A stretch of DNA of 64,000 nt from Bdellovibrionales bacterium (GCA_050250515.1 JBFWON010000001.1:30035-94034), one strand, 5' to 3'. Shown: positions 33,973 to 59,819, counted from the first letter of the stretch. A program made the numbers and translations. Notes: generated by a model from the letters alone, not told the origin.

Positions 33973-36900
33973 CTACTGCAGCGCTGCCTCGCAGGGGGAA
34001 TTCACGGTCCTTGGTTCGACTTGCGCAATAGGTGCGTCGGCCGGGATTTCAACCGAGGCATACTGTTTCGCCTTGCGCTCTTTCGCGATCTCATTGATAT
34101 CGGCCATCTTAGATGGAACGAGGACACCGTTTTCAAATTCGATACTGAGATCGTGAGCTGGCTTAGCCGCTGAAGACCAAGGCCAAAGAGAAGCCAATGA
34201 CCAACCCTTGCGCTTCTTAGGGGCCGCAGCACTAGGCTTTACCAACTCGGCCGTCTGGTAGAACTCTTGGAGCTTCTTTGCGTCCATTTCACCCAGCTCC
34301 GCAAGTTTGGCGCCCATTGGAATCAAACCATTTTTGAAATTAGCCTCGAGGGAAGCGCGCGCGAGAGCCTCGCCTTCTTCTAAAAGACTTTGAACTTCAG
34401 CCTCCAACTTTTGTTTGGCGGATTCAGATAAAGTCCCAATGTACTCCTGGACCTGCCAGCCGGAGGGAACGGCGTAATTGCCCCAAGTTCGGCCTAAGCC
34501 GTACTTAATCACGGCGTCTTGAGCCATTCGGGTGGCCCGTTCAAGGTCATTGCTCTTACCGGCCGAATCGCGGCCTCCTTTGACCACGAGCTGCTCGGCT
34601 ACGTAGCCGGCCGCGAGAACAGCAATCTGGCGCACGAAGTATTCCCGCGTGTAGGAGATTTCTTTGCTCTTTTCATATTGAGCGACACCGGCGTAGTAGA
34701 TCCATCGATCGCCAATGCGTGAGACACCGGGGATTACAGAAATCTTGACGCCGTCGAAGGCCCCTTCGAAAAGAATTCGTCGGACGAGTTCGTGACCGGC
34801 TTCATGATAAGCGGTGACAAGCTGCTCAGAAAGATTTCGCTCGAGAGATTTTTCGACGTAGGGTCTTCGAATTTTGAGCGAAAGAATTTCGGACTGACCT
34901 TCAACGGACACTTCGTAATTTACATATCCAGGGTTATGTTCGTCGTGATTCGAGGTCTTTTCTTTGAATTTAACCAAAACTTTGGCCCCGCTAGGAACCT
35001 TGTTCTGCAAAAGCAAATTCTTAAGTGGTTCCTCCACGTCGTCGCGAACAAAGCTCTCAATCGAAGCCCCTTGGTAACGAAGGGAGAATCCTTCCTCGAC
35101 CACCGTATCAATGAAATCGCTGTATTCCTGCTGGGTCGGGAAAAGGACCTTCCATCCCCGTCGACTGTCCGTCGAGCTCAGTCTTTTCAAAGCTTGACCC
35201 AACTTCAACTGGGCCAGCTGTCGGAGAGAGCGGTAGTTATGAGGTGGCATAAAGAAAATATTGTTGCGGCCAATCCGGGTGATCAACGGCTCTGGATAGT
35301 ATTTCTCAAGAACTTGGCGCTGGAGCTCAGGGTCATTTTGTGTTTGACGAGCGATCTCTTCCCAAGCGTACATCTGAACCGCCATTGGAACATCACGGGG
35401 CACGCCGCTATAGAGTTCCTGGCCGGGGTTTCCGGTGACAACGACGGTCACCCCACCCATGGGTCGGGCTTTTCCATCTGAGAACGTGTGCATCACCGGC
35501 TCGCGGAAGAAATCGTATAGGGCCTTGAGCAAATCCATATCGCGAACGTTGGCGAGTTCGTCGAAGGCGACGATCAACTTTCCACCATTACGGTCATAAT
35601 GCTTCATAAATTCAGAGGGAATGGCATTTCCCGCGCCATCCTTTAGCCCCAGAATCTTAACTTTGAAGTCATGCAGCGTCTGAATCTGGGAGAAATCGAA
35701 GGTGATAAGTTCATCATCTGACTTTCGCACCAGTCGAGCCAACTGTTTCGCGGTTTCTGTTTTACCTGTACTGGATAGTCCATTGAGCATTATGACGTTT
35801 ACAGGACGGGACGAGGAGCCCTGACTTTCATTTTCAATATTAAGAATGCGCTGAGCAATTCGCTCCACCACCTCATCGATACCAAAAACGTGCTGTTTCA
35901 ATTGGCCGGCGAGACCAGCGAGCTCCTCGATGCGGCTGTCGGAAATCGGCTCCGCAGGGATGTCTTTCAGCGTCGCACGGATCAGCTGGCGAAGGTTTTT
36001 CTTTTGACCTCCGCCCTCGGCTTCAATCACCAAGCTGAGAGTACGATCGTCGTTGCTCGCAATCGAGAGTTTTATCTTGAGTCGCTCAGCCTGAGGTAAA
36101 CGGCCTTCCCTCAGGGCATCGATCAACGGCTGCTCGACTAAGCTGGCCAATCGACCAAAGATGGGTCGAGCATTCTCCTCTGGGGAGTAGTCGTACCCCT
36201 GAACCATTTTTAGGACGTCGGGTCCCCATTCCAGGTGGATTTTGCCAATCATATCCGAATCACTCATCTTGCGACTGAGATCCTCGAGGCCGATCTTTGC
36301 GATCTTTTGCAAATCCTCGGGAGAGAGGGGCCGCATCAGAAGAACTAAATCGTCGGGGACCCGGTTGAGCATTTCTTCGGAAATTCCAGGTTTAGATTCG
36401 TCACGATCAGCGCCGTTGGCTCGACCATTGGTGGCTAGAATTTCGGCTTTAAGAGCCGCCTTATTGTGATGAACATGCTCCCATTTGGCGAGGATCTGCT
36501 CGTACGACATCGGCTTTCCATGCCGTTGGCCGTTGGATTCTCGCGAAGTGACAAGACCAATACCTTCATTCGAGGCAATGACGAAGCGGATAGGGACGAA
36601 GATCTCAGATAGGCCTCCGTTCGGGTTGTTGATCGTGAATCGGCCCTTTTCAAGGGCTTCTTTCAAAAACTGATCCTTCATTGATTTGGACCAGTTGTGA
36701 AATTCATTTACAAATACAATGCCGGTGTTGGGAGGGAAGTAACCTTGTAAAGTCTCACCCTTAAAGTCCTTGTTTTCGAGGACCTTGTAGGTCTCTTTGC
36801 CGCTGCCAGTGCCCTGAGTTTTCTCGATTTTGTATCTTCCACCGGAATGTTGAACGAGGAATTCCAGAAATGGCGGGAAATTGTCCGAACCTACATAGCC

Positions 36901-37848
36901 TGTGGCGGAGCCCAAAAGTTGCCACAGGTCCGCGTTGGCCCGAAGTTTCGGCATGCGAAACATATGTTTCCGATGAGCCATCTTAAATCCATGAAGGGCA
37001 TCGGTCAGCACTTCAGCGGCCGTATCTTTACCTGTTCCAGGTAGGCCCATTAGATAAATCACGTCGGGTAGGGCCCGGGACTTTTCATAAAGCTGCGCCC
37101 GCCATTCGAGATCGACAAGGGCTTGAATCACTTCTGGTTGGCCGACAATTCGAGCTTCCAGATAATCTTGGAAGCGTTTCATGTAGGCGTCACCTCTTTG
37201 GCTTTTGCCAATGATGTGATTGATGTGATCGTTAAGATCCAAAAGAGGTGTGCGATTGTTCTCTAAAATTTTGTAGGTGAAAACCAATTGGCGGGTGGTC
37301 CCGTCGTCGGTGGGATCGACCAGACCTAAGCGTGCGACGTGCTCTTCGATTACATCCGTTAATTCTTCAAGGTAGCGCGACGGAGAAGCAGTTCCAATTT
37401 TAGCCATTGTATCTAGAGCTAGGGCCATGACCTCAAGACTGCCTTTACCATTGTCTTTAAGGCCACGTTTCATCTCGTTGCGCAGGACTGCGAAAAGCGC
37501 TTCCACCGCTTCTTGTGTTTGGTACTGACCAAGCGCCGAAACTCGATAGAGTGGAATCGCATTGTTGTTGGATCGACCTAAGACCTCTTTCAAGAAGGCG
37601 AGGTCCTCATTCAGCATATCTCGAAGAGCTTCTAAATCGGCCTGATCCAGGGATTTAATGTACTCGGTAGTGTAGACCGTGGATTCTTCGTTCCCATCTT
37701 TGGTCCAACCCTCAGAAGAAAAGGCCAGAGCCCAGACTGACAAGCAAACCAGTGCTAATTTTTTCACGAATTCCCCTCTCACCCTTTTTACTGATCCACC
37801 CCGGATCCTGAGAGGCTGTGCTATCGAATGCTTAGAGAGAGTGTCCAC
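33973..37848 (-). CDS. Large fusion protein: signal-like N-terminus, helical region, two ClpB-D2-type AAA+ modules, FtsH-type M41 zinc peptidase domain
   Basis: Module 1: IVGQPEVIQAL, GLPGTGKD, IVFVNEF, NARPI. Module 2: GLSSTGKT, IVAFDEL. M41: TAYHEAGHELV and GKSNDLERATRMAQDAV. Likely start is the GTG at 37767, after GAGAGGGG, giving MKKLALVCLSVWALAFSS. Confidence 0.8.
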   Translation of the reverse strand: MDTLSKHSIAQPLRIRGGSVKRVRGEFVKKLALVCLSVWALAFSSEGWTKDGNEESTVYTTEYIKSLDQADLEALRDMLNEDLAFLKEVLGRSNNNAIPLYRVSALGQYQTQEAVEALFAVLRNEMKRGLKDNGKGSLEVMALALDTMAKIGTASPSRYLEELTDVIEEHVARLGLVDPTDDGTTRQLVFTYKILENNRTPLLDLNDHINHIIGKSQRGDAYMKRFQDYLEARIVGQPEVIQALVDLEWRAQLYEKSRALPDVIYLMGLPGTGKDTAAEVLTDALHGFKMAHRKHMFRMPKLRANADLWQLLGSATGYVGSDNFPPFLEFLVQHSGGRYKIEKTQGTGSGKETYKVLENKDFKGETLQGYFPPNTGIVFVNEFHNWSKSMKDQFLKEALEKGRFTINNPNGGLSEIFVPIRFVIASNEGIGLVTSRESNGQRHGKPMSYEQILAKWEHVHHNKAALKAEILATNGRANGADRDESKPGISEEMLNRVPDDLVLLMRPLSPEDLQKIAKIGLEDLSRKMSDSDMIGKIHLEWGPDVLKMVQGYDYSPEENARPIFGRLASLVEQPLIDALREGRLPQAERLKIKLSIASNDDRTLSLVIEAEGGGQKKNLRQLIRATLKDIPAEPISDSRIEELAGLAGQLKQHVFGIDEVVERIAQRILNIENESQGSSSRPVNVIMLNGLSSTGKTETAKQLARLVRKSDDELITFDFSQIQTLHDFKVKILGLKDGAGNAIPSEFMKHYDRNGGKLIVAFDELANVRDMDLLKALYDFFREPVMHTFSDGKARPMGGVTVVVTGNPGQELYSGVPRDVPMAVQMYAWEEIARQTQNDPELQRQVLEKYYPEPLITRIGRNNIFFMPPHNYRSLRQLAQLKLGQALKRLSSTDSRRGWKVLFPTQQEYSDFIDTVVEEGFSLRYQGASIESFVRDDVEEPLKNLLLQNKVPSGAKVLVKFKEKTSNHDEHNPGYVNYEVSVEGQSEILSLKIRRPYVEKSLERNLSEQLVTAYHEAGHELVRRILFEGAFDGVKISVIPGVSRIGDRWIYYAGVAQYEKSKEISYTREYFVRQIAVLAAGYVAEQLVVKGGRDSAGKSNDLERATRMAQDAVIKYGLGRTWGNYAVPSGWQVQEYIGTLSESAKQKLEAEVQSLLEEGEALARASLEANFKNGLIPMGAKLAELGEMDAKKLQEFYQTAELVKPSAAAPKKRKGWSLASLWPWSSAAKPAHDLSIEFENGVLVPSKMADINEIAKERKAKQYASVEIPADAPIAQVEPRTVNSPCEAALQ

Positions 37849-38062: not shown

Positions 38063-38605
38063 TTACAAAATCAAACGACGCAGTTCTTCCTGAGAGTAGA
38101 GGTAATCGGCGTAGACCATCGTGTTGGTGATGTTGCGATGACCTAGGGCCACCTGCACTAAACGCAGATCTTTGGTCTTCTTATACAGACGAATGGCGAA
38201 AGTATGTCGGAGGCAGTGAAGCTTCTTCTGCACGGGGCGATAGTGCTCCCAAATCTGTCGAAGGCGATTGTAGGAGATCGGAAACAAGTGATGATCTTGA
38301 GCGCGCTCCACCTCGCGCTGAAGCTTTTGAAAGAGCCAAGACGGTAGCGGGAGCTCCCGATCATTACTGCCCTTGAGTCCGTGAATGAACACGGATTCTT
38401 CATAACTATTCAGGTCCTCGACCTTAATATTCAAAACCTCACGAGCTCGGGCGCCCGTGTTGAGTAGAGTCCAGAGCAGTGTGCAGTTGCGCGGCTCCTG
38501 GTCCTGAAACGAGTGAAGAATGTGGACCAATCGATCGTGTTCCGGATCCAAGAGGTACTTATTTTTGTTGAGAGCATACCGGACTCTCGACGAGGCACTG
38601 GCCAT
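38063..38605 (-). mobile_element. Short tyrosine recombinase (catalytic domain only, 180 aa)
   Basis: GARAREV (Arg), HCLRHTF (HxxR), LGHRN (His), VYADY (Tyr). There is no N-terminal core-binding domain. Confidence 0.8.
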
Positions 38606-38643
38606 TTTTTGAAACTCCCGCGTGTGGAAAATCTATATATAAA

Positions 38644-38840
38644 ATAAGTTTATACGCCTTGAGCCAATCGGCGATTTCACTCGATGAGGGGAGTTTCTGA
38701 TTCAATTGGGCGACGATATTCAAGATAAGTCAACCACTTAGCACTGTAACTTATAGTTATAAGTGGTAGCTCAATTTGGAATCACCCTCACTTCTACCTA
38801 TTGAGCCATCCAGGCTCATTGATACATAAGTTGTAACCAC
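38644..38840. repeat. Cluster of short direct and inverted repeats in the AT-rich spacer next to the recombinase
   Basis: ATAAGT at 38644, 38725, 38759 and 38826; ACTTAT at 38749. ATAAGTCAACCAC (38725-38737) against ATAAGTTGTAACCAC (38826-38840). CCACTTA (38734) paired with TAAGTGG (38760). GCTCAAT (38769) paired with ATTGAGC (38800). Confidence 0.7.
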
Positions 38841-38937
38841 CCAGGCCCGTACCAAATAATTGTACTTTACAACGCTTTATCGTGTGATTCACAATTTAAA
38901 GAGGTGAAATACAACACGATGTTCGAGGGGGTTCCGC

Positions 38938-39423
38938 TTGGATTTTCATCTTGAGGACCACAGCTTCCAGGGGGTCGACCCATCGCCGGGTCGAAGCAAG
39001 ACGTCTCAGCGTTTAAAATACGAGGCGGAAATCAGGGTTTTTCGATCGAAATATGGGGGCCTTGAACAGGTCCGCCAGGGGATGGGCCTCACCCGTCGAA
39101 AGATTTGCCAGCTTTTAATGGTGGATCCTTCGGCATGGACAAGATGGCTACGGGATGAGGACAAAGTTCCGCCCGCCATCTATAGATCACTCGAAAGCAT
39201 GATTCTTTTGAATGAAAAGAACCCGGATTTGATGCGAGTTTTAGGGTCCAGGGTCAGTCAAAGCCTGGGGATCGAAAAAAGCTCGGAACTAAAGTTGAAA
39301 ATCGAGCATCTTGAGGCCGAATTAGACGCCTTAAAGTCTAAAAACCTAGCCTCCACGGCCAAAGCTATGACGCTTTTGATAGGTCTATTCTTTCTGGCGA
39401 TCCTGGTGCTGCTGATGCGGTAG
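38938..39423 (+). CDS. Membrane-anchored XRE/MqsA-type HTH protein (HTH, coiled coil, C-terminal TM)
   Basis: TTG start 7 nt after GAGGGG. GLTRRKICQLLMVDPSAWTRWLRDEDKVPPAIYRSLESMILLNEKNPDL resembles the MqsA/YiaG HTH. Tail LLIGLFFLAILVLLM. Confidence 0.45.
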   Translation: MDFHLEDHSFQGVDPSPGRSKTSQRLKYEAEIRVFRSKYGGLEQVRQGMGLTRRKICQLLMVDPSAWTRWLRDEDKVPPAIYRSLESMILLNEKNPDLMRVLGSRVSQSLGIEKSSELKLKIEHLEAELDALKSKNLASTAKAMTLLIGLFFLAILVLLMR

Positions 39424-40363
39424 AGCTCGAGCTTGTTAAATCCCGGAGGACGGATTTTCCAAATAAAACATAGCTGTCATTCACATGGGCGCTGGCCGCA
39501 AAATTCGGTTTTTGCATTAGGGTCCTGTGGGCCGTCGGTAAGTTGTAGCTTGGAATGGCAGGGTAGAGATGATGGCAAAGATGCAGGTTTACGTTGTGGG
39601 GCGAAAATAAGGAATTTTCAAGAGGGCCAGAGGTGATATCTCGAGAAGAATTCAATTCATGCTCCCGAGGCAGGCCAAAATGTTCCCCCACGCTTCGAAT
39701 TCTTTGCAGCAGAGGAAAGACCAGAAAGAGCGGTGCGATCCAATACAGAAAAACCATAGACCACCCGTGCAAGGCGGTAATGATCGTTGCCGCTAAAGCA
39801 AAGAATAAAGTCTTCTTAATCAAGCGCTTGCGTAACATTGAACTTGTAAAGGTCTCTCGTCGAGTCAGACCCGAATAAAATAGAACGATCTGACACCACT
39901 CTTTTAATCCGGCGAAAATCATAAAATAAGGTAAAAAAGCTGCGATTTTTGCTTTCGTGACCGGAAAATTCCATTCGGCGAGATCCTTTTTTCGAATCCA
40001 GTCAGGATCCTTGTCCGTATTCAGATGTTCGTGGTGACGGTAATGAGTTTCTCGATAAGTGTCCATATCGAAGAGGACTGGATAGGCCGCAAGCCAATTG
40101 GCAATTCGATCGTTCCATCGTTTTCGAGCCGCCAGATGTTTGTGCACCCCTTCGTGGACCATAATAAAAAGTCCATGTTGGCGTCCCGCAATCACGAGGA
40201 CTGCAAGTAGATAGATCCAGATGTTGTTTGCTTGCTCAGAGAGAGTCGCCATTCCTAATATGATGATCCAATCCTGTAGGAGTAGCAACCAGCTCTTCCA
40301 AAATTTGGGTCTAGTTAAATCTTGAAGCTCTGCCTTAGTAAAAAAAGTTTGTCCTGCACTCAT
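39365..40363 (-). CDS. Membrane fatty-acid desaturase family protein (three His boxes)
   Basis: HEGVH, HYRHHEH, HLCHH. TM helices. Starts 6 nt downstream of the GNAT-like gene. Confidence 0.8.
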   Translation of the reverse strand: MSAGQTFFTKAELQDLTRPKFWKSWLLLLQDWIIILGMATLSEQANNIWIYLLAVLVIAGRQHGLFIMVHEGVHKHLAARKRWNDRIANWLAAYPVLFDMDTYRETHYRHHEHLNTDKDPDWIRKKDLAEWNFPVTKAKIAAFLPYFMIFAGLKEWCQIVLFYSGLTRRETFTSSMLRKRLIKKTLFFALAATIITALHGWSMVFLYWIAPLFLVFPLLQRIRSVGEHFGLPREHELNSSRDITSGPLENSLFSPHNVNLHLCHHLYPAIPSYNLPTAHRTLMQKPNFAASAHVNDSYVLFGKSVLRDLTSSSSTASAAPGSPERIDLSKAS

Positions 40364-40369
40364 ATTGAA

Positions 40370-41074
40370 CTAAGCCGCCTTCGGAAATGTCGCAGATTCG
40401 AAGCGACCGACTGTTCGTTCCCCATGAACGACCCGTCGTTCCCACAGATTTTCTACAAACTGGCTGACCTCCGCAGTTTTCCCTAAAACGGCCGTCTTTC
40501 GATCAATGGCGATGATGTCCACTTCGACATTGTGCTGTGAGTAGCCGGACTTTAGGCATTTAGCACCATGCCCGTAGCAAAGTTGGTTCACTTTTCGATC
40601 ATTGCGAGTGTAAGCAATCAGGTGGTCACAATCCGAGGATAAGAATCGCTTACATCCGAGCCCTATCAGACCATCTGCAATGATGCCGTTGTTCACTTTG
40701 CGCCACTCGGGCACCACGGCTAAATTCCCCATACTCATAACCAGGTGGGCGCCTAGTTCCTTGAGTTGGGCAAGCGTTTCTGGTGGGTAAGCTTTGAAGT
40801 ACGAATGATTGAGGTGGGATCTCAATTGGAAATTGTGCCATCCATAGCAGAAAACTCCAATGACACGATTGCCCTCGAAGATAGCCGTGACTTCGTCCTG
40901 TCGGTCAAATTCGTCAGAAAAGAGGTGTTCAAGTCCCTTAATTTCTCTAAACGTTTGTGACCAGATGGTGTGCCAACAATCGTAGACCCTTTCGTATAGG
41001 GCCACGGCTTCCTGATGGTCTTGCCATCGATCTGTAAATATATGATAAGATAGGGATTGTGGTAATTTGCTCAT
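40370..41074 (-). CDS. GNAT-fold N-acyltransferase resembling N-acyl amino acid synthase / LuxI-like / bacterial ceramide synthase families
   Basis: SDEFDRQDEVTAIFEGNRVIGVF...MGNLAVVPEWRK...ADGLIG pattern. ATG at 41074 follows GGAG with an 8-nt spacer; the track start is 41128. The family call is tentative. Confidence 0.5.
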   Translation of the reverse strand: MSKLPQSLSYHIFTDRWQDHQEAVALYERVYDCWHTIWSQTFREIKGLEHLFSDEFDRQDEVTAIFEGNRVIGVFCYGWHNFQLRSHLNHSYFKAYPPETLAQLKELGAHLVMSMGNLAVVPEWRKVNNGIIADGLIGLGCKRFLSSDCDHLIAYTRNDRKVNQLCYGHGAKCLKSGYSQHNVEVDIIAIDRKTAVLGKTAEVSQFVENLWERRVVHGERTVGRFESATFPKAA

Positions 41075-41207
41075 GCTTTTTTCTCCGGCCATAATTGTCG
41101 GTTGGAAAAGCATTTGGATTGAGGCCAATAAACAACTCTAGGACTAATTCTGGCCATTCCGAAGGAGCCATTTGCCTGGCGGACCGCGGCATGCTAGTTT
41201 TCATGAA

Positions 41208-41963
41208 ATGAACAATTTAGCCCTTTCTCAAAATCTTTTTAAGTTTAACGAGGGAATCTCCTTCTTAGATGAGTTTGTCCATTTGTCGTCCCGAGTTTCG
41301 GAATTGGCAAATGAGGTGGGCATTCAAATAACCCCTTTCCGCAATTCGAATCTTCCGCACTTTTCGCGAAAATCCGAGGAGGAAAAGAGCCGCGTTATTT
41401 GGGATCTTCGAAACTACGTAACGGTTTGTGAGAAGGTCCAGGATGATGGGGGCGACCTCAAGGATCCCGTCACTGTTACATGGATGGCTATAAAAGAAAT
41501 GGGTATGCGCCCACCTTCTGATTTATTTTCCCATATCACGGCTGACAATGTGATTGAATTTCACAACCAGGATGGGATTCAGATTTTCCGAAATTTTCAT
41601 TTTTATCAGTATTGCAGCTATTCTTTGGAGGAGCTCTACTGTTTTCCGTGGAGCACGCTCTATTCAAGGAATGAAGAGGCGCTCAATTCATTACTTCGGA
41701 TATTTGGGAGTTTTTACTGTGGTGAAATGAAGACCGGAGTAAGGACGGGTATTGCTCCACACATTATCGAAGAGATTTACTCTCCCTTTAAATACAAAAT
41801 TTATGCAAGCCAGGATTATGCGGCCCCGTTGTTTGATCTTACGGGGCGTCCTATTGCCTCTATTATAGTCGAGACGGGTAGGTTAGTGAACGCCCCTCTG
41901 TCTCCTGAGGAAGAGGAGCGTATTTTGTTGAATCATCAGAGCTATTTCGATTTCCAACTCTAA
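41208..41963 (+). CDS. Hypothetical protein with PAS-like C-terminal half and no output domain
   Basis: DNVIEFHNQDGIQIFRNFHFYQYCSYSLEELYCFPWSTLY...DLTGRPIASIIVETGRLV fits a PAS-fold spacing pattern. Locally AT-rich. Track start is 41172. Confidence 0.4.
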   Translation: MNNLALSQNLFKFNEGISFLDEFVHLSSRVSELANEVGIQITPFRNSNLPHFSRKSEEEKSRVIWDLRNYVTVCEKVQDDGGDLKDPVTVTWMAIKEMGMRPPSDLFSHITADNVIEFHNQDGIQIFRNFHFYQYCSYSLEELYCFPWSTLYSRNEEALNSLLRIFGSFYCGEMKTGVRTGIAPHIIEEIYSPFKYKIYASQDYAAPLFDLTGRPIASIIVETGRLVNAPLSPEEEERILLNHQSYFDFQL

Positions 41964-42607
41964 ACGGCCCGTCGAATCGACTTTGTCTCCGCTAGTTCTT
42001 TACTCTTGATAAGCACTTCTCGATAGAGGTCGCTCGAAAGATCGAGGTTCTCCATCGCGAGCTTGGCTTCATCTTGGTTGAGTTTATCCATGTTCCGAAA
42101 GGCTTCGTCGAGATGTCCTACGTCGGCTTCACTGTGAAGTTTGATGAATTTGGCGGATTGGGGGCCGTGCGCATCATGGACTCTTTTGTGAATTTCTGGA
42201 CCATAGTATTCGGCGATAGCTTCAAGTGCCAAGGTGTAACCAAAAAATGAAGCTGCGTTCAGATGTTGAATCCAATAGTACTGAACTTGATACATCGCTT
42301 GCGACGGGGCCAGGGCAGGGATGTCGGAGGGCTGATAGCCGAGCGCTTTCAGATCGGAAATGGCGATGAGTTGATGACCACGCTCCTCTTTTGAGTGATC
42401 AACGAATCGTTCGTGCAAGAAGCTTCTCTCGATTGGGGCGTAGGCACCTGCCAGCGCCACTAATCGGGTCGAATGGTTGACCATATAGAATGTTTGTCCT
42501 AGCCAGATGGCGTACGCTTCCCTGTTTTCCCACGGATAATCGTGAATAAAAGGTCCTGTCTTATCCATCTGCTGTTTGGCGGCCTCGCGAAAATTGATCA
42601 TATTCAC
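41960..42607 (-). CDS. Heme-oxygenase-like di-iron oxidase (iron-containing redox enzyme family)
   Basis: All-helical, 215 aa. Ligand motifs EERGH (ExxH), LALEAIAE, HSEADVGH (Hx3Dx2H), as in the CADD/UndA/SznF-type HDO family. Confidence 0.65.
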   Translation of the reverse strand: MNMINFREAAKQQMDKTGPFIHDYPWENREAYAIWLGQTFYMVNHSTRLVALAGAYAPIERSFLHERFVDHSKEERGHQLIAISDLKALGYQPSDIPALAPSQAMYQVQYYWIQHLNAASFFGYTLALEAIAEYYGPEIHKRVHDAHGPQSAKFIKLHSEADVGHLDEAFRNMDKLNQDEAKLAMENLDLSSDLYREVLIKSKELAETKSIRRAV

Positions 42608-42793: not shown

Positions 42794-45412
42794 ATGTGGA
42801 ATTCACGGAGGATTCGAGTGGTCCGCCTATTGATGGTTGCGGTTTTGTTTCTGTTCAATACCACGTGCACGCGGTCAGTCCCCAATGTCTCGCTGCGCTT
42901 ATCGATTCCGGCGCCTTCGGGGCTAGCGGACTTAGATGCGAATGATCTACTGGAAGTGGTCATCGTTAATATTCATATTCCGGGAAAGCCTCTCCTAGTG
43001 CGCGAGTTCAATTTTGAAAACCAGTCGATTCCATTGGGGCAGGACTTAAATCTAGATATAAACGACGTCCCCGCCGGATCAGGGGTTTTCGTTCAAGTGC
43101 TAACGGTTTATTCCAATCAGGTGAACGGCGTCTTTAAGTTTTTATATGGTGATGCGACCACCACGGTTTCATCGGGTGCGCCTCCCGTGGAAATTACGGC
43201 GGCCAATGCGGGAGCTTCGGATCGGATGATCCGATTGGCCGGGCGAATTTTGACCTCGACGGTGCCTGACGCAGGACCAACCGGGGTCCTCATCGCTCAG
43301 TTCCAGCCGCCCAACGGCAAGCCTTATATGAGCGTAGACAAAACTCCCATAGTGAATGGTTGGTTTCAAGCGTTTGCCATCGACTCGACGACCGCCGGAT
43401 TTCGCTACGTCATGGGCGATACGGTGGTCTTTGACAATTTGAATTCGCAATCGCCGGCACTGGCGACCTCGAACTCTCGACTTCAGGTGCGAAAACCGGT
43501 CAGTGCCCGCCGAGATAATAGCCAGACGCGCATGGACCCCGAAACGGACTACTACTTAGGCTTTTGGGGGGCAGGGAGCGGAAAGCAAGTGTGCTACGTG
43601 GACACCCATGAAGCTCTGCTCAATATTTACACCGACGCGACGTTGACGACGCCTCTCGAATATCGAAATACGGGTGCGACCACTGCCAATGTCCGCCCGG
43701 TGGCAGGAGGGAGTGCTGAATCTAACTATGGCGTCTTTGCCACTGCAGGATCAACCTGCACCAATCCGCAACTGCTCTCCGGCGATGCTCTTATTTTCCA
43801 CAATCAATATGCCAATGACGAGCGAGACTACGCGGGATTCCGAGTGCCCTATCAGGCACTGCGGCCATTCACTCTTCGCCCAAGCTATCTGATAGGCGAT
43901 TACTTCACGGGGCCTGATCGCTGGGAAATTAAGTGGAAATATCTGCCAGGGGCGGCTGTGACGGGATTGGGAACTGAAATTTGGGCCAAGTACGAAGCCA
44001 ATGGCGGGGGCGGTGGTGGCAAGAATGAATGCTCTCGATTAACAGAACAAGGATATCAACTGATCTCCTCCGTCGCCGCACCAACTGAAACTTACAGCTT
44101 TACGGGAGTCCCTGGCCAGCCCATGACTGCTGCCAATCGATATGATTTCCGAATTGCGGCCTGCGCTTATTATGAAGCTCCACAAGGACGCACTCAGTTG
44201 GGCGAGTACATTGAGGCCAATTGCTTAGGATCCAATTGCGGCGAAACGGAACACTTTGGTTGGGGTGTGAGTAATAAAACCATTTCGGGCGGGCAATTCT
44301 TTGATTCATTAACTCCTATCTCTGGAAAATCGCAAAGAGTCACTGGGGCCATTGCTAGCTTTGATAACTACACCTCACTCGCCGTGGGCTCGGAAGTCGG
44401 ATTTTTTTCGGGCCAAGAGGCTCTCGTTTTGGTGAACGGTGCGGGTAGCGCCACCGACTGTGGCTCGTATCAGGGGCAAACAATTGATGTGGGAACTTTT
44501 GGCTTTGCTCGAATCTTAAGTACCGGCACGGGGGAGATTCGAATCAGTAAAGGAACTTTCTTGGACGGAATCACGACGACGAATTTGTCGGCCGCGGCCA
44601 CGACTTCGACCTTTTGTTATGTGCAAATTGTCCAAATGATCCACTTTCGGGACATCACAATCACCGGTGGTCCCGCCAACTTGACCTTGGGAGCTGCATT
44701 TGATTATGGCGCGGGCGGCGGAGGCGTCATCGCCTTTCGGGCCAATGGAACACTCAATTTGGGCACCAGCGGAGATAAGATTGATGTATCCGCCAAAGGT
44801 TATCCTGGAGCGGACAGCACTAACGCCAATGGCGGCGGAGATCGACGTGCCCCCATCGGGTCGGGAATCAACCACATGGGCGGTCAGTACGGACTCGACG
44901 CAAGCGGAGGAGCCGGCTTCGGTGGCGGTGGGTCTGGTGCCATTACGACTGGAGGCATTGCCAGAACAGAAACCAATCAGGGGCTTCGTCTGGTCTTTGG
45001 GGGCGGCGCTGCAAGTAGTGGAGGCAGTGCCAATATGGGCCAAGGTGGCGGAATCGTCTTTATTGCGGCGAAGGAAATTGTCAGCGAGGGCGGCGGAGCG
45101 ATTTACGCCGATGGCGCGGGCTCAACGAGCTACAGTGGAGCTGGTGGTGGAAGCATTAACTTGATCACCAAAAAACTTTCGAAAGGCGCCTCCACTGGGG
45201 GAGTTAACTATTTGGCTCGTGGCGGAGACTCCAGTGCCACCAATAGTGGGGGCGGTGGTGGAGGCTTCGTTTCTGTGATTGCCTGCGCGAATGATCTGGC
45301 TTCAACGAATCTTCAAACCCTCGGTGGCGCGTTGACCGGTAGTGGTGTTGCCGGGTCGACAGGTTCAACTTCCGCCTATCCCAGCGCCACTAACTATGGG
45401 ATCTGCCGTTGA
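42794..45412 (+). CDS. Large secreted glycine-rich protein with beta-helix-like C-terminal repeats
   Basis: Hydrophobic N-terminus (LLMVAVLFLFNTTC). Repeated GGGG-hydrophobic rungs (GGGGVIAFRANG, GQGGGIVFIAAK, GGGAIYADG, GAGGGSINLI, GGGGGGFVSVIA). Confidence 0.6.
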   Translation: MWNSRRIRVVRLLMVAVLFLFNTTCTRSVPNVSLRLSIPAPSGLADLDANDLLEVVIVNIHIPGKPLLVREFNFENQSIPLGQDLNLDINDVPAGSGVFVQVLTVYSNQVNGVFKFLYGDATTTVSSGAPPVEITAANAGASDRMIRLAGRILTSTVPDAGPTGVLIAQFQPPNGKPYMSVDKTPIVNGWFQAFAIDSTTAGFRYVMGDTVVFDNLNSQSPALATSNSRLQVRKPVSARRDNSQTRMDPETDYYLGFWGAGSGKQVCYVDTHEALLNIYTDATLTTPLEYRNTGATTANVRPVAGGSAESNYGVFATAGSTCTNPQLLSGDALIFHNQYANDERDYAGFRVPYQALRPFTLRPSYLIGDYFTGPDRWEIKWKYLPGAAVTGLGTEIWAKYEANGGGGGGKNECSRLTEQGYQLISSVAAPTETYSFTGVPGQPMTAANRYDFRIAACAYYEAPQGRTQLGEYIEANCLGSNCGETEHFGWGVSNKTISGGQFFDSLTPISGKSQRVTGAIASFDNYTSLAVGSEVGFFSGQEALVLVNGAGSATDCGSYQGQTIDVGTFGFARILSTGTGEIRISKGTFLDGITTTNLSAAATTSTFCYVQIVQMIHFRDITITGGPANLTLGAAFDYGAGGGGVIAFRANGTLNLGTSGDKIDVSAKGYPGADSTNANGGGDRRAPIGSGINHMGGQYGLDASGGAGFGGGGSGAITTGGIARTETNQGLRLVFGGGAASSGGSANMGQGGGIVFIAAKEIVSEGGGAIYADGAGSTSYSGAGGGSINLITKKLSKGASTGGVNYLARGGDSSATNSGGGGGGFVSVIACANDLASTNLQTLGGALTGSGVAGSTGSTSAYPSATNYGICR

Positions 45413-58000: not shown

Positions 58001-59289
58001 CAGATGATCCTGTAGTCCTTGAGTTCCCGAATCAAAGTTTCAACCGCCGTTTTCACAATGACCACTGTTGGAATCGCCAGCAACATTCCCCACAGGCCCA
58101 TAATCACCGACCCACCCAATATGGCGACGATTACCACCATGGGATGCAGATTGATCGCGCCACCCAAGACAAAGGGCTGAAATACGACGTTGTCGAGAAC
58201 GTGCGCCAATCCCACTAGAACCAACACATAAAGCGCAAGATCTTCAGGGTTTAAACCAGGAATGAGAGGCTGAACATTTTCAGCGATAAGGGCATACCCT
58301 AGTCCAATGATGAGTCCAAAAACAGTACCCAAAAAGGGAATCGCATTCACCAATCCTGACACCACACCGATCGCAATGGCGACACTGACCGGCAAGCCCA
58401 GGAGGCACAGACCAGAAGCCAGCGTTAGGCCCACGAGGCCACATTCCATAAAGGTGCCACGTAGGTACTTACCTATAGCGTCGTCCAACATGTCCAAAAC
58501 GGTTAGACTCAGCTCGAAGTAACGATTCGGAACGAGACCAATAAAATAGCGGCGAATTTGCCCACTATCGAAGCTCAGAAAGAAGAAAACTAAAGGTGCA
58601 AGAAGCCACGCCGACAGTGCATCATGGTTGACTCCGCTCACAGAAGCCGACTCTGAACTCGGAGCTGACGACCTCTCCTCTGAACTCATTGATGCTTCCT
58701 GTTCCTTTTTTTGAAAATTGGCATTGGTCGTCAAGTTTGCCTGGAAGTACTCAAAATAACGATCTTCGATGGGTTTTTGTCCGCGATATCCAGTTCGATA
58801 TTTGAGAAACAAATCGATTTCTATCGGACTGAGCTCCAACCACCGATTGACCTGATTCATGAGCGCGGCGGCCTCTCTCGCCACAACAGGAATAATAGGG
58901 TTGGTCTCTTTCTCTTTCTTGCTGAAAAGCTGGGTGTATTTCTCGTTGAGTTTATATTTCACTCGAACCTTCAGCTCAAGAGCCTGTCTTTCGTCGGGAA
59001 TTTGGGTTCGAACCGTGCTAATGACGGCGAACAGGGCCAGTCCGATAGCCGCGAAAAAACTAAGGGTTTGAACTTCGTGAGGTAGCCACGGGATCCTAAA
59101 GCGATCCTTGAGTGGACGAAACAAAAAAGCCAGGAGCGCCCCGACCGTTATAGGCAGGAGTAAACTTCGCAGGCTCCAGACCAAGGCCACGAATGTAATA
59201 AAGGACAGGACCCCAAAGCCTCGGTAGAAGTATTTTCGGCGAAGCTTTCTTTCCAGCTCGTTTTTTTCAAAGTCTTGTCCACGCCTCAT
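58000..59289 (-). CDS. AI-2E (PerM) family transporter
   Basis: Polytopic, with a typical AI-2E C-terminal half (GLVNAIPFLG...LLAIP). Confidence 0.75.
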   Translation of the reverse strand: MRRGQDFEKNELERKLRRKYFYRGFGVLSFITFVALVWSLRSLLLPITVGALLAFLFRPLKDRFRIPWLPHEVQTLSFFAAIGLALFAVISTVRTQIPDERQALELKVRVKYKLNEKYTQLFSKKEKETNPIIPVVAREAAALMNQVNRWLELSPIEIDLFLKYRTGYRGQKPIEDRYFEYFQANLTTNANFQKKEQEASMSSEERSSAPSSESASVSGVNHDALSAWLLAPLVFFFLSFDSGQIRRYFIGLVPNRYFELSLTVLDMLDDAIGKYLRGTFMECGLVGLTLASGLCLLGLPVSVAIAIGVVSGLVNAIPFLGTVFGLIIGLGYALIAENVQPLIPGLNPEDLALYVLVLVGLAHVLDNVVFQPFVLGGAINLHPMVVIVAILGGSVIMGLWGMLLAIPTVVIVKTAVETLIRELKDYRII

Positions 59290-59819
59290 GCAGCAACCTT
59301 TGGATCCATCTCACCATTTTGAACAAGTTCGTTGGTCGACCTTAGACGATCTCCAACGATTTGCGCGAGGGCCCGGTAGATTTGGCATGCCGTGGCCGGA
59401 TCGCGGTTAATCAGCCGATCCAGGTCATTGCGAAACAGAGCCAAGCATTTTGTGGGTTCAATCGCTCGAGCGGAGGCCGACCGAGGAGCTCCATCTAAAA
59501 GCGCCATCTCGCCTAAGAAGGAGCCTTTTTCGAGTGTCGCCAGGTTCGCCGTGAACTTTTCGCGATAGACCTCGATGGATACCTTACCCTCAACTATCAA
59601 GAACAATGCGGTTCCAGGTTGCCCTTCTTCGAAAACCATTTCATTGGCGCTGTAGGTCCGATCAAAAATGATTTCCGAGACTGACTTCAACTGCCAATGA
59701 GCCAGATCATTGAAAAACGGGATGGTCTGAAGAAATTTAATTCGGCCGATCTCGGGACTTGTCTTTCGCCACCGACTGAGAGTCTCCCACAAAAGTTTTT
59801 GGGCATCGAACTTCGCCAT
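59286..59819 (-). CDS. Stand-alone cyclic-nucleotide-binding domain protein
   Basis: FEEGQPGTALFLIVEG...LGEMALLDGAPRSASARA. Confidence 0.8.
   Translation of the reverse strand: MAKFDAQKLLWETLSRWRKTSPEIGRIKFLQTIPFFNDLAHWQLKSVSEIIFDRTYSANEMVFEEGQPGTALFLIVEGKVSIEVYREKFTANLATLEKGSFLGEMALLDGAPRSASARAIEPTKCLALFRNDLDRLINRDPATACQIYRALAQIVGDRLRSTNELVQNGEMDPKVAA

Follow-up and report, generated by a model that had tools for sequence, protein, structure and literature searches.

Introduction

Heme-oxygenase-like diiron oxidases and oxygenases (HDOs) hold their metals through three histidines and three carboxylates (3H/3C) contributed by the core helices α1, α2 and α3, and their oxidations include alkene, alkyne, nitrile, N-nitroso and azetidine formation (PMC13108848). 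Some 9,600 to more than 10,000 HDOs are predicted and roughly a dozen have been characterised (PMC13108848, PMC7848743), with deorphanisation being the bottleneck of the field (PMC13108848). Here we describe an HDO-like protein encoded on the minus strand, at 41960..42601, of a 64,000-nucleotide stretch of Bdellovibrionales bacterium DNA (GCA_050250515.1 JBFWON010000001.1:30035-94034; hereafter the window), together with the gene module in which its relatives are found.

In HDOs of the 3H/3C class Fe1 is ligated by the substrate, whose binding often sets off O2 addition (PMC7848743, PMC13108848); the substrate was found on Fe1 in five of five substrate-bound 3H/3C HDO structures (PMC13108848). 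The 3H/4C N-oxygenases of the SznF/RohS type have an extra coordinating glutamate on a β-turn insertion, in auxiliary helix α2 (PMC7848743). Amino-acid-oxidising HDOs, among them BesC, HrmI/BelK, SznF, AetD/SktA, PolF and MboA, are mostly of the 3H/3C type and act in small-molecule biosynthesis, with the substrate ligating Fe1 (PMC13108848). Recognising a new HDO by its six ligand residues is now routine, as for DtpC of Acinetobacter baumannii, an HDO-domain protein with a protective role and no known substrate (PMC13232832).

The closest solved relative of the window protein is 3DDE (Sden_3740 of Shewanella denitrificans), a structural-genomics entry described as a 'domain of unknown function with a heme oxygenase-like fold' and labelled 'TENA/THI-4' by its depositors. 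Our literature search found no paper on 3DDE/Sden_3740 or on a Bdellovibrio HDO.

Identification of the HDO

The gene lies within a minus-strand open reading frame (ORF) at 41960..42607, of 215 aa when counted from GTG, whose numbering is used for all HDO residues below. This ORF, with its motifs EERGH, LALEAIAE and HSEADVGH, had been put forward in the original prediction, and both the frame and the three motifs are real. Its proposed upstream end at 42607 is probably not the true start, since the in-frame GTG there falls inside the ribosome-binding site, within the Shine-Dalgarno-like GAGAGGTG, while an ATG six bases further 3', at 42601, has the correct spacing from GAGAGGTG. As the resulting 213-aa protein is moreover 100% identical to an NCBI protein (P0001) from a Bdellovibrionales metagenome-assembled genome (MAG), the gene most likely occupies 41960..42601. 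P0001 carries the name 'iron-containing redox enzyme family protein', so that the protein is a correctly identified further orphan that NCBI had already annotated generically.

The sequence matches PF14518 (Haem_oxygenas_2, 'iron-containing redox enzyme') with 39.0 bits, above the gathering score of 28.9 (E 9.6e-10; residues 35-183), and the same domain is present in 96 of 96 full-length homologues. The only other Pfam match is a sub-threshold ferritin hit around the E-x2-H motif. An AlphaFold2 (AF2) model built with 44 homologues is entirely helical, as had been anticipated, with a predicted local distance difference test score (pLDDT) of 93.8 and a predicted template modelling score (pTM) of 0.90, and this model has a heme-oxygenase-like fold of seven helices. 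Foldseek aligned it to 3DDE with a template modelling score (TM) of 0.84, to UndA with 0.74, to CADD with 0.73 and to HmuO with 0.7; TenA proteins (0.66-0.75), PqqC and heme oxygenases are also among the matches, and HrmI (9N1X) ranks 44th. Because these scores do not separate UndA and CADD from TenA, the case for an HDO rests on the ligand residues and not on the ranking of folds.

Ligand residues

The proposed ligands were examined in an alignment of 44 HDO sequences, 44-70% identical to the query. Two of them, E75 and H78, lie in the core α1 motif H71-x2-E74-E75-x2-H78 (42374..42397, minus strand), in which H71 and E74 are additional invariants. E129, the proposed bridging glutamate of core α2, is encoded at 42221..42223 (minus strand), and the core α3 motif H158-x3-D162-x2-H165 at 42113..42136 (minus strand). 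All six (E75, H78, E129, H158, D162 and H165) are invariant, as are H65, D70, H71, E74 and R76. With 31 invariant columns among about 215, the probability that six chosen positions would all fall in the invariant set is approximately 6e-6 (hypergeometric); the six-residue motif is thus not due to chance.

For comparison, we take the metal ligands of CADD to be E81/H88/E142/H174/D178/H181 and those of UndA to be E101/H104/E159/H194/D198/H201. These numbers fall on the correct residue types in sequences of CADD and a UndA homologue that were confirmed on PDB chains (1RCW, 100% identical; 3OQL, ~99%), and the UndA numbering agrees with PMC7848743 at Asp198, Val65 and Phe68. MAFFT L-INS-i placed E75/H78 onto UndA E101/H104, E129 onto E159 and H158/D162/H165 onto H194/D198/H201, so that all six residues coincide with UndA ligands. 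Five coincide with those of CADD (H78 with H88, E129 with E142, and H158/D162/H165 with H174/D178/H181), and hhalign independently recovered the α3 and E129 matches to both proteins. The remaining CADD ligand, E81, aligns with the invariant H71, placing the α1 carboxylate of the HDO at a different turn and giving this clade a distinctive α1 signature, H-x2-E-E-x2-H. The signature is common to the query clade, 3DDE, the fused protein P0306 described below and the HDOs of loci L025 and L028. In the AF2 model the α3 helix region is interrupted by a helix break at residues 161-164. The proposed assignment to the CADD/UndA type with an intact ligand set is borne out by the above-threshold family match, the modelled fold and the sequence alignment with the UndA ligands, and we consider it very probable that the protein is an HDO whose metal site is intact.

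No conserved Asp or Glu was found among the 44 homologues in residues ~44-60, where an auxiliary-α2 ligand would sit; the invariants of this stretch are R48, L49, A53 and G54, and residues 46-56 form an uninterrupted helix in the AF2 model. As a conserved acidic residue is absent from the place of the SznF-type auxiliary glutamate, the site is of the 3H/3C type. The 3H/4C subclass of SznF and RohS was ruled out on the same ground.

Comparison with described HDO-fold proteins

3DDE (phmmer E 2e-14) is only ~21% identical to the HDO, and it carries the same six residues, in HHAHEEAGH, an aligned Glu and HSKIDAKH. UndA, the Pseudomonas fatty-acid decarboxylase and 1-undecene synthase (4WWJ/6P5Q; homologue 3OQL), shares the fold, the 3H/3C set, the E-x2-H spacing of α1, the H-x3-D-x2-H motif of α3 and the lack of an auxiliary-α2 glutamate. 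However, identity to UndA is ~12%, the global profile alignment is not significant and the HDO is ~45 residues shorter. Furthermore, the conserved non-ligand residues of the HDO family are largely polar (R48, R67, R76, D70, D85, Q107, Q109 and R196), suggesting from sequence that its pocket may be unlike a fatty-acid tunnel.

CADD/PabS of Chlamydia trachomatis (CT610, 1RCW) likewise has the same fold, and its α3 motif HEEADVRH is nearly identical to HSEADVGH, whereas in α1 its ligands are spaced E-x6-H and those of the HDO E-x2-H, as in UndA. The amino-acid-oxidising HDOs belong to the same superfamily, beyond which no sequence relation to the query was detected, and HrmI is the only one of them among the Foldseek matches. 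For BesC, HrmI/BelK, SznF, AetD/SktA, PolF and MboA, no association with a GNAT-like protein or with a PAS/XRE pair, as described in the following sections, has been reported.

A conserved gene module

Across about 20 loci, nearly all from Bdellovibrionota, the HDO gene is directly preceded on the same strand by a gene for a second protein, A, of ~230 aa, the spacing between the two ranging from -4 to 38 nt, and it faces a convergent gene for a third protein, C, of ~250 aa. Sixteen of the A-HDO-C loci come from GTDB genomes, all of them Bdellovibrionota MAGs, and the others are the metagenomic loci L001, L003, L024 and L028. In 13 of the 16 cases that could be measured, the 3' end of C extends 4-86 nt into the HDO gene; in the window the overlap is 4 bp. 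A ~92-aa helix-turn-helix (HTH) gene of the XRE type adjoins C in seven loci (L001, L006, L008, L009, L017, L018 and L028), lies upstream of A in L003 and is part of the same ORF as C in L013 (P0123). This fusion differs from the L009 orthologue only near the stop codon, so that it may be a lost-stop artefact and was given little weight. Such a module of predatory bacteria, comprising A, the HDO, a PAS-fold protein and an HTH protein, is previously undescribed.

In L024 (777-2057) A and the HDO form a single 426-aa ORF, P0306, in which the ligand motifs are kept and after which a convergent C homologue is found. L025 (2895-7856) has an A-HDO pair whose stop and start codons overlap, without C; its neighbours there are a Trp_DMAT aromatic prenyltransferase and another protein, of 234 aa, that is weakly PF14518-like. 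Taken together, the single ORF and the pair lacking C point to A-HDO as the enzymatic core and to C and the HTH protein as lineage-specific additions. L025 has the appearance of a natural-product cluster from a different lineage.

Scanning 38.9-42.9 kb of the window for promoters and terminators gave nothing above the shuffled expectation, no inverted repeats were found upstream of the HDO or C genes, and PADLOC returned no defence-system match for any protein of the module.

Partner proteins A and C

Protein A, encoded at 40370..41074 (minus strand), has 234 aa when counted from the NCBI start. Its family is large, with 1,010 clusters at 50% identity reaching E<1e-3. Among 148 members, sub-threshold Pfam matches were obtained to Acetyltransf_1 in 11 (best E 0.0064), FeeM in two (0.0026), Acetyltransf_5 in one (0.0025), Acetyltransf_7 in two and Acetyltransf_CG in one, and no unrelated family recurred in more than two. 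On the basis of these sequence matches A probably has a GNAT fold, as a divergent transferase. A match of A to 3VU0 (E 0.004) was treated as noise, since it covers 49 residues of an uncharacterised protein. A LuxI-type identity for A found no support.

Protein C is encoded at 41208..41963 (plus strand), convergent with the HDO gene, and has 251 aa when the start given by NCBI is used. Its 99 homologues are all unannotated and all from Bdellovibrio-like sources. Searches of Pfam, NCBIfam and the PDB with the C and A sequences gave no match for either, a Pfam PAS match included in the case of C, and no DNA-binding domain was detectable within C; PDB searches with a profile of the C family likewise gave nothing meaningful. 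The AF2 model of C (pLDDT 92.8) shows N-terminal helices, a classic antiparallel PAS sheet of five strands (115-120, 125-128, 185-189, 197-209 and 215-226) and a C-terminal helix. Foldseek matched it to LOV2, the NifL PAS domain and the PAS-B domains of HIF-2a, ARNT and BMAL1, with E-values of 1e-5 to 1e-2 and target-normalised TM of 0.6-0.7. As modelled, C is a PAS-fold protein.

Exchange of the oxidase

The gene order of the window differs from that of most loci: a 161-aa HTH-like protein (plus strand), a desaturase-like protein (minus), A (minus), C (plus) and the HDO (minus). The desaturase-like gene (39365..40363, minus strand), 6 nt downstream of A, encodes a membrane di-iron enzyme of the FA_desaturase family (PF00487). 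Its best NCBIfam match is GntB, at 150.8 bits and thus below the cut-off of 380; GntB is a transmembrane L-arginine γ-hydroxylase, called α-ketoglutarate-dependent in one review. The gene occurs only in loci of the window type and is absent from most loci.

Syntenic relatives of the window share its flanks, namely a Glu/Leu dehydrogenase, an 872-aa Gly-rich protein, the 161-aa protein and a short tyrosine recombinase. The locus between the 872-aa gene and the tyrosine recombinase gene, compared over 38063-42607 of the window, is hypervariable among them. L021, L022 and L027 have no HDO at all, their gene orders being des2/C'/A/des (L021 and L022) or C'/des2/A (L027). The slot beside C is therefore occupied either by the HDO or by a non-homologous membrane di-iron desaturase-like enzyme, an exchange suggesting that the two enzymes have a common substrate scaffold, derived from A. 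It gives no more than loose support to a substrate that is lipophilic or derived from an amino acid. The acyl or N-acyl substrate that the original prediction had read from the neighbouring genes is plausible, but the pointers to it are weak: A gives faint GNAT-clan signals, and the desaturase-like neighbour is closest to GntB.

C-terminal tails

A, the HDO and the desaturases have in common a C-terminal tail of the form -(K/R)x0-1A(A/S), despite their unrelated folds. The last two residues are -AA in 45 of the 97 HDOs, in 54 of the 148 A proteins and in one of the 99 C proteins; most of the remaining HDO and A endings are -AG, -AS, -SA or -VA. The A-HDO pair of L025 lacks -KAA tails. In the window, three of 55 large ORFs end in this way, two of them in the module. 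The tail of the module, -(K/R)AA, resembles an ssrA-like C-terminal degron and may be such a degron or a docking tail; no tmRNA gene with which to compare -KAA is present in the window. The only other large ORF of the window with the tail encodes a 177-aa cyclic-nucleotide-binding-domain protein (59286-59819, minus strand), which ends in -KVAA.

Proposed role and alternatives

On balance we favour a reading in which the HDO is a 3H/3C dimetal oxidase acting on what A makes, and in which C and the HTH protein regulate the two enzymes or sense their product. Two metals (Fe/Fe, or possibly Fe/Mn) would be held by E75, H78, E129, H158, D162 and H165. A substrate bearing a carboxylate or an amine would probably ligate Fe1 and trigger O2 addition, as in characterised 3H/3C HDOs, and its oxidation could then take the form of desaturation, C-C cleavage, hydroxylation or N-oxygenation. 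This substrate would most likely be the small-molecule product of A, and the PAS-fold C and the XRE HTH would most likely regulate the A/HDO pair or sense what it makes.

Several observations weigh against this reading. For the metal site, Foldseek places TenA about level with CADD and UndA, the hhalign links of the HDO to the latter two are weak (E 0.01-0.03), and the convergence of the six side chains on one site is predicted from secondary structure and alignment. The GNAT assignment of A comes from sub-threshold matches in 17 of 148 members; a comparison of A with PDB profiles returned nothing meaningful, an NCBIfam scan of the 148 members gave scattered noise, and hhalign found no match between A and an unconfirmed LasI sequence. 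As for the linkage, the HDO of L016 (3589-6553) is preceded by ahpC/ahpF with no A, as the sole exception, and in the window itself A is not adjacent to the HDO, having been relocated beside the desaturase-like gene. Moreover, each of the two fusions, A-HDO and HTH-C, comes from a single metagenomic contig or MAG (one 2.7-kb Logan contig in the case of P0306) and may be a lost-stop artefact.

The fold alone would also accommodate a metal-free enzyme like TenA (thiaminase II) or PqqC, in which the conserved His, Glu and Asp would be incidental: TenA and PqqC lie near CADD and UndA among the Foldseek matches, and the best PDB match, 3DDE, was deposited as TENA/THI-4. However, neither TENA_THI-4 nor PqqC of Pfam gave a match to the HDO even at E<=10, the six ligand positions are invariant and 3DDE itself has the same six. 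TenA requires a catalytic Cys nucleophile. The 44-sequence alignment contains no invariant or near-invariant Cys, so that this nucleophile is absent and, together with the missing TENA_THI-4 match, the TenA reading fails; we regard it as extremely improbable, in agreement with the earlier view that the protein is not a relic of the TenA/PqqC kind. Hardly any more credible is a self-sacrificing p-aminobenzoate synthase for folate, as CADD/PabS is. The common fold, the nearly identical α3 motif and a weak, partial match to the CADD subfamily model TIGR04305 would speak for it, but that match spans residues 141-187 only and its 13.5 bits fall far short of the cut-off of 200, the PDB search with HDO-family profiles reached 3DDE alone and missed CADD, the α1 spacing is UndA-like, and the conserved neighbours are no folate genes but encode a transferase-like protein and a PAS/HTH pair.

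Two further alternatives concern what the module does. The HDO could protect against stress, or sense O2 or iron, in concert with the PAS/HTH regulators, a role proposed for DtpC, which provides the precedent for a protective HDO-domain protein (PMC13232832). The position of the L016 HDO directly after ahpC/ahpF, encoding a peroxiredoxin and its reductase, fits this idea, as do the flavin-binding redox and light sensors (NifL PAS, LOV) among the top fold matches of C. We nevertheless think it unlikely, since the near-universal tight coupling of A to the HDO, their occurrence as a single ORF, their pairing in a cluster that has a prenyltransferase and the exchange of HDO and desaturase-like enzymes all point to a shared small-molecule substrate. 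Alternatively, A and the HDO might make a diffusible signal that is read by C and the XRE HTH, as a cassette comparable to LuxI/LuxR in which swapping of the oxidase would create signal variants. A synthase-like pair, a ligand-binding fold and a DNA-binding protein are indeed brought together in one module, the genes are convergent with 3' ends that usually overlap (an arrangement we take to be that of EsaI/EsaR-type pairs), oxidase content differs between syntenic relatives, and the C-terminal tail is found on the enzymes only. The basis of this proposal is contextual, however, and the arrangement would fit a self-regulated biosynthetic or catabolic operon too; C has no detectable DNA-binding domain, the window has no 92-aa HTH beside C, and L025 has A-HDO without C. 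A diffusible signal is therefore a doubtful, if conceivable, product of the pair. Equally tentative is the fuller version, a signalling cassette of predatory Bdellovibrionota in which A, as a GNAT-like synthase, and a swappable di-iron oxidase would synthesise a signal specific to the strain, the PAS/HTH proteins would act as its receptor and the tail would be a degron keeping synthesis transient. If true, it would give Bdellovibrio-like predators their first described signal system that is dedicated to a small molecule.

The main value of the locus lies in the conserved A-HDO-PAS-HTH module and its oxidase swapping and not in the ligand set itself. The clade offers a compact, testable two-enzyme system, as A and the HDO are each below 240 aa, and brings with it a candidate ligand sensor (PAS/HTH) and a solved but uninterpreted relative, 3DDE.

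Flanking genes

The 161-aa protein (38938..39423, plus strand) has a weak XRE-type HTH, with a weak HTH_31 / VC1465-like 'Xer recombination activation factor' match, and a hydrophobic C-terminal tail; its homologues flank the module in L005, L014, L021 and L027. Its neighbour, encoded at 38063-38605 (minus strand), is a tyrosine recombinase of 180 aa that comprises the catalytic domain (PF00589) and nothing else. That the recombinase and the 161-aa protein are kept beside the variable module in relatives may point to a recombination-driven cassette. On the other side, divergent from the HDO gene, 42794-45412 (plus strand) encodes the 872-aa protein, which is secreted-looking, has a Gly/Ala/Ser-rich C-terminal half and contains no Pfam domain; paralogues of it flank the module in L005, L020, L021 and L027. 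Elsewhere in the window, 33973-37848 (minus strand) encodes a 1291-aa protein in which two AAA+ modules (with a ClpB D2-small domain) are followed at the C-terminus by a peptidase M41 (FtsH-like) domain.

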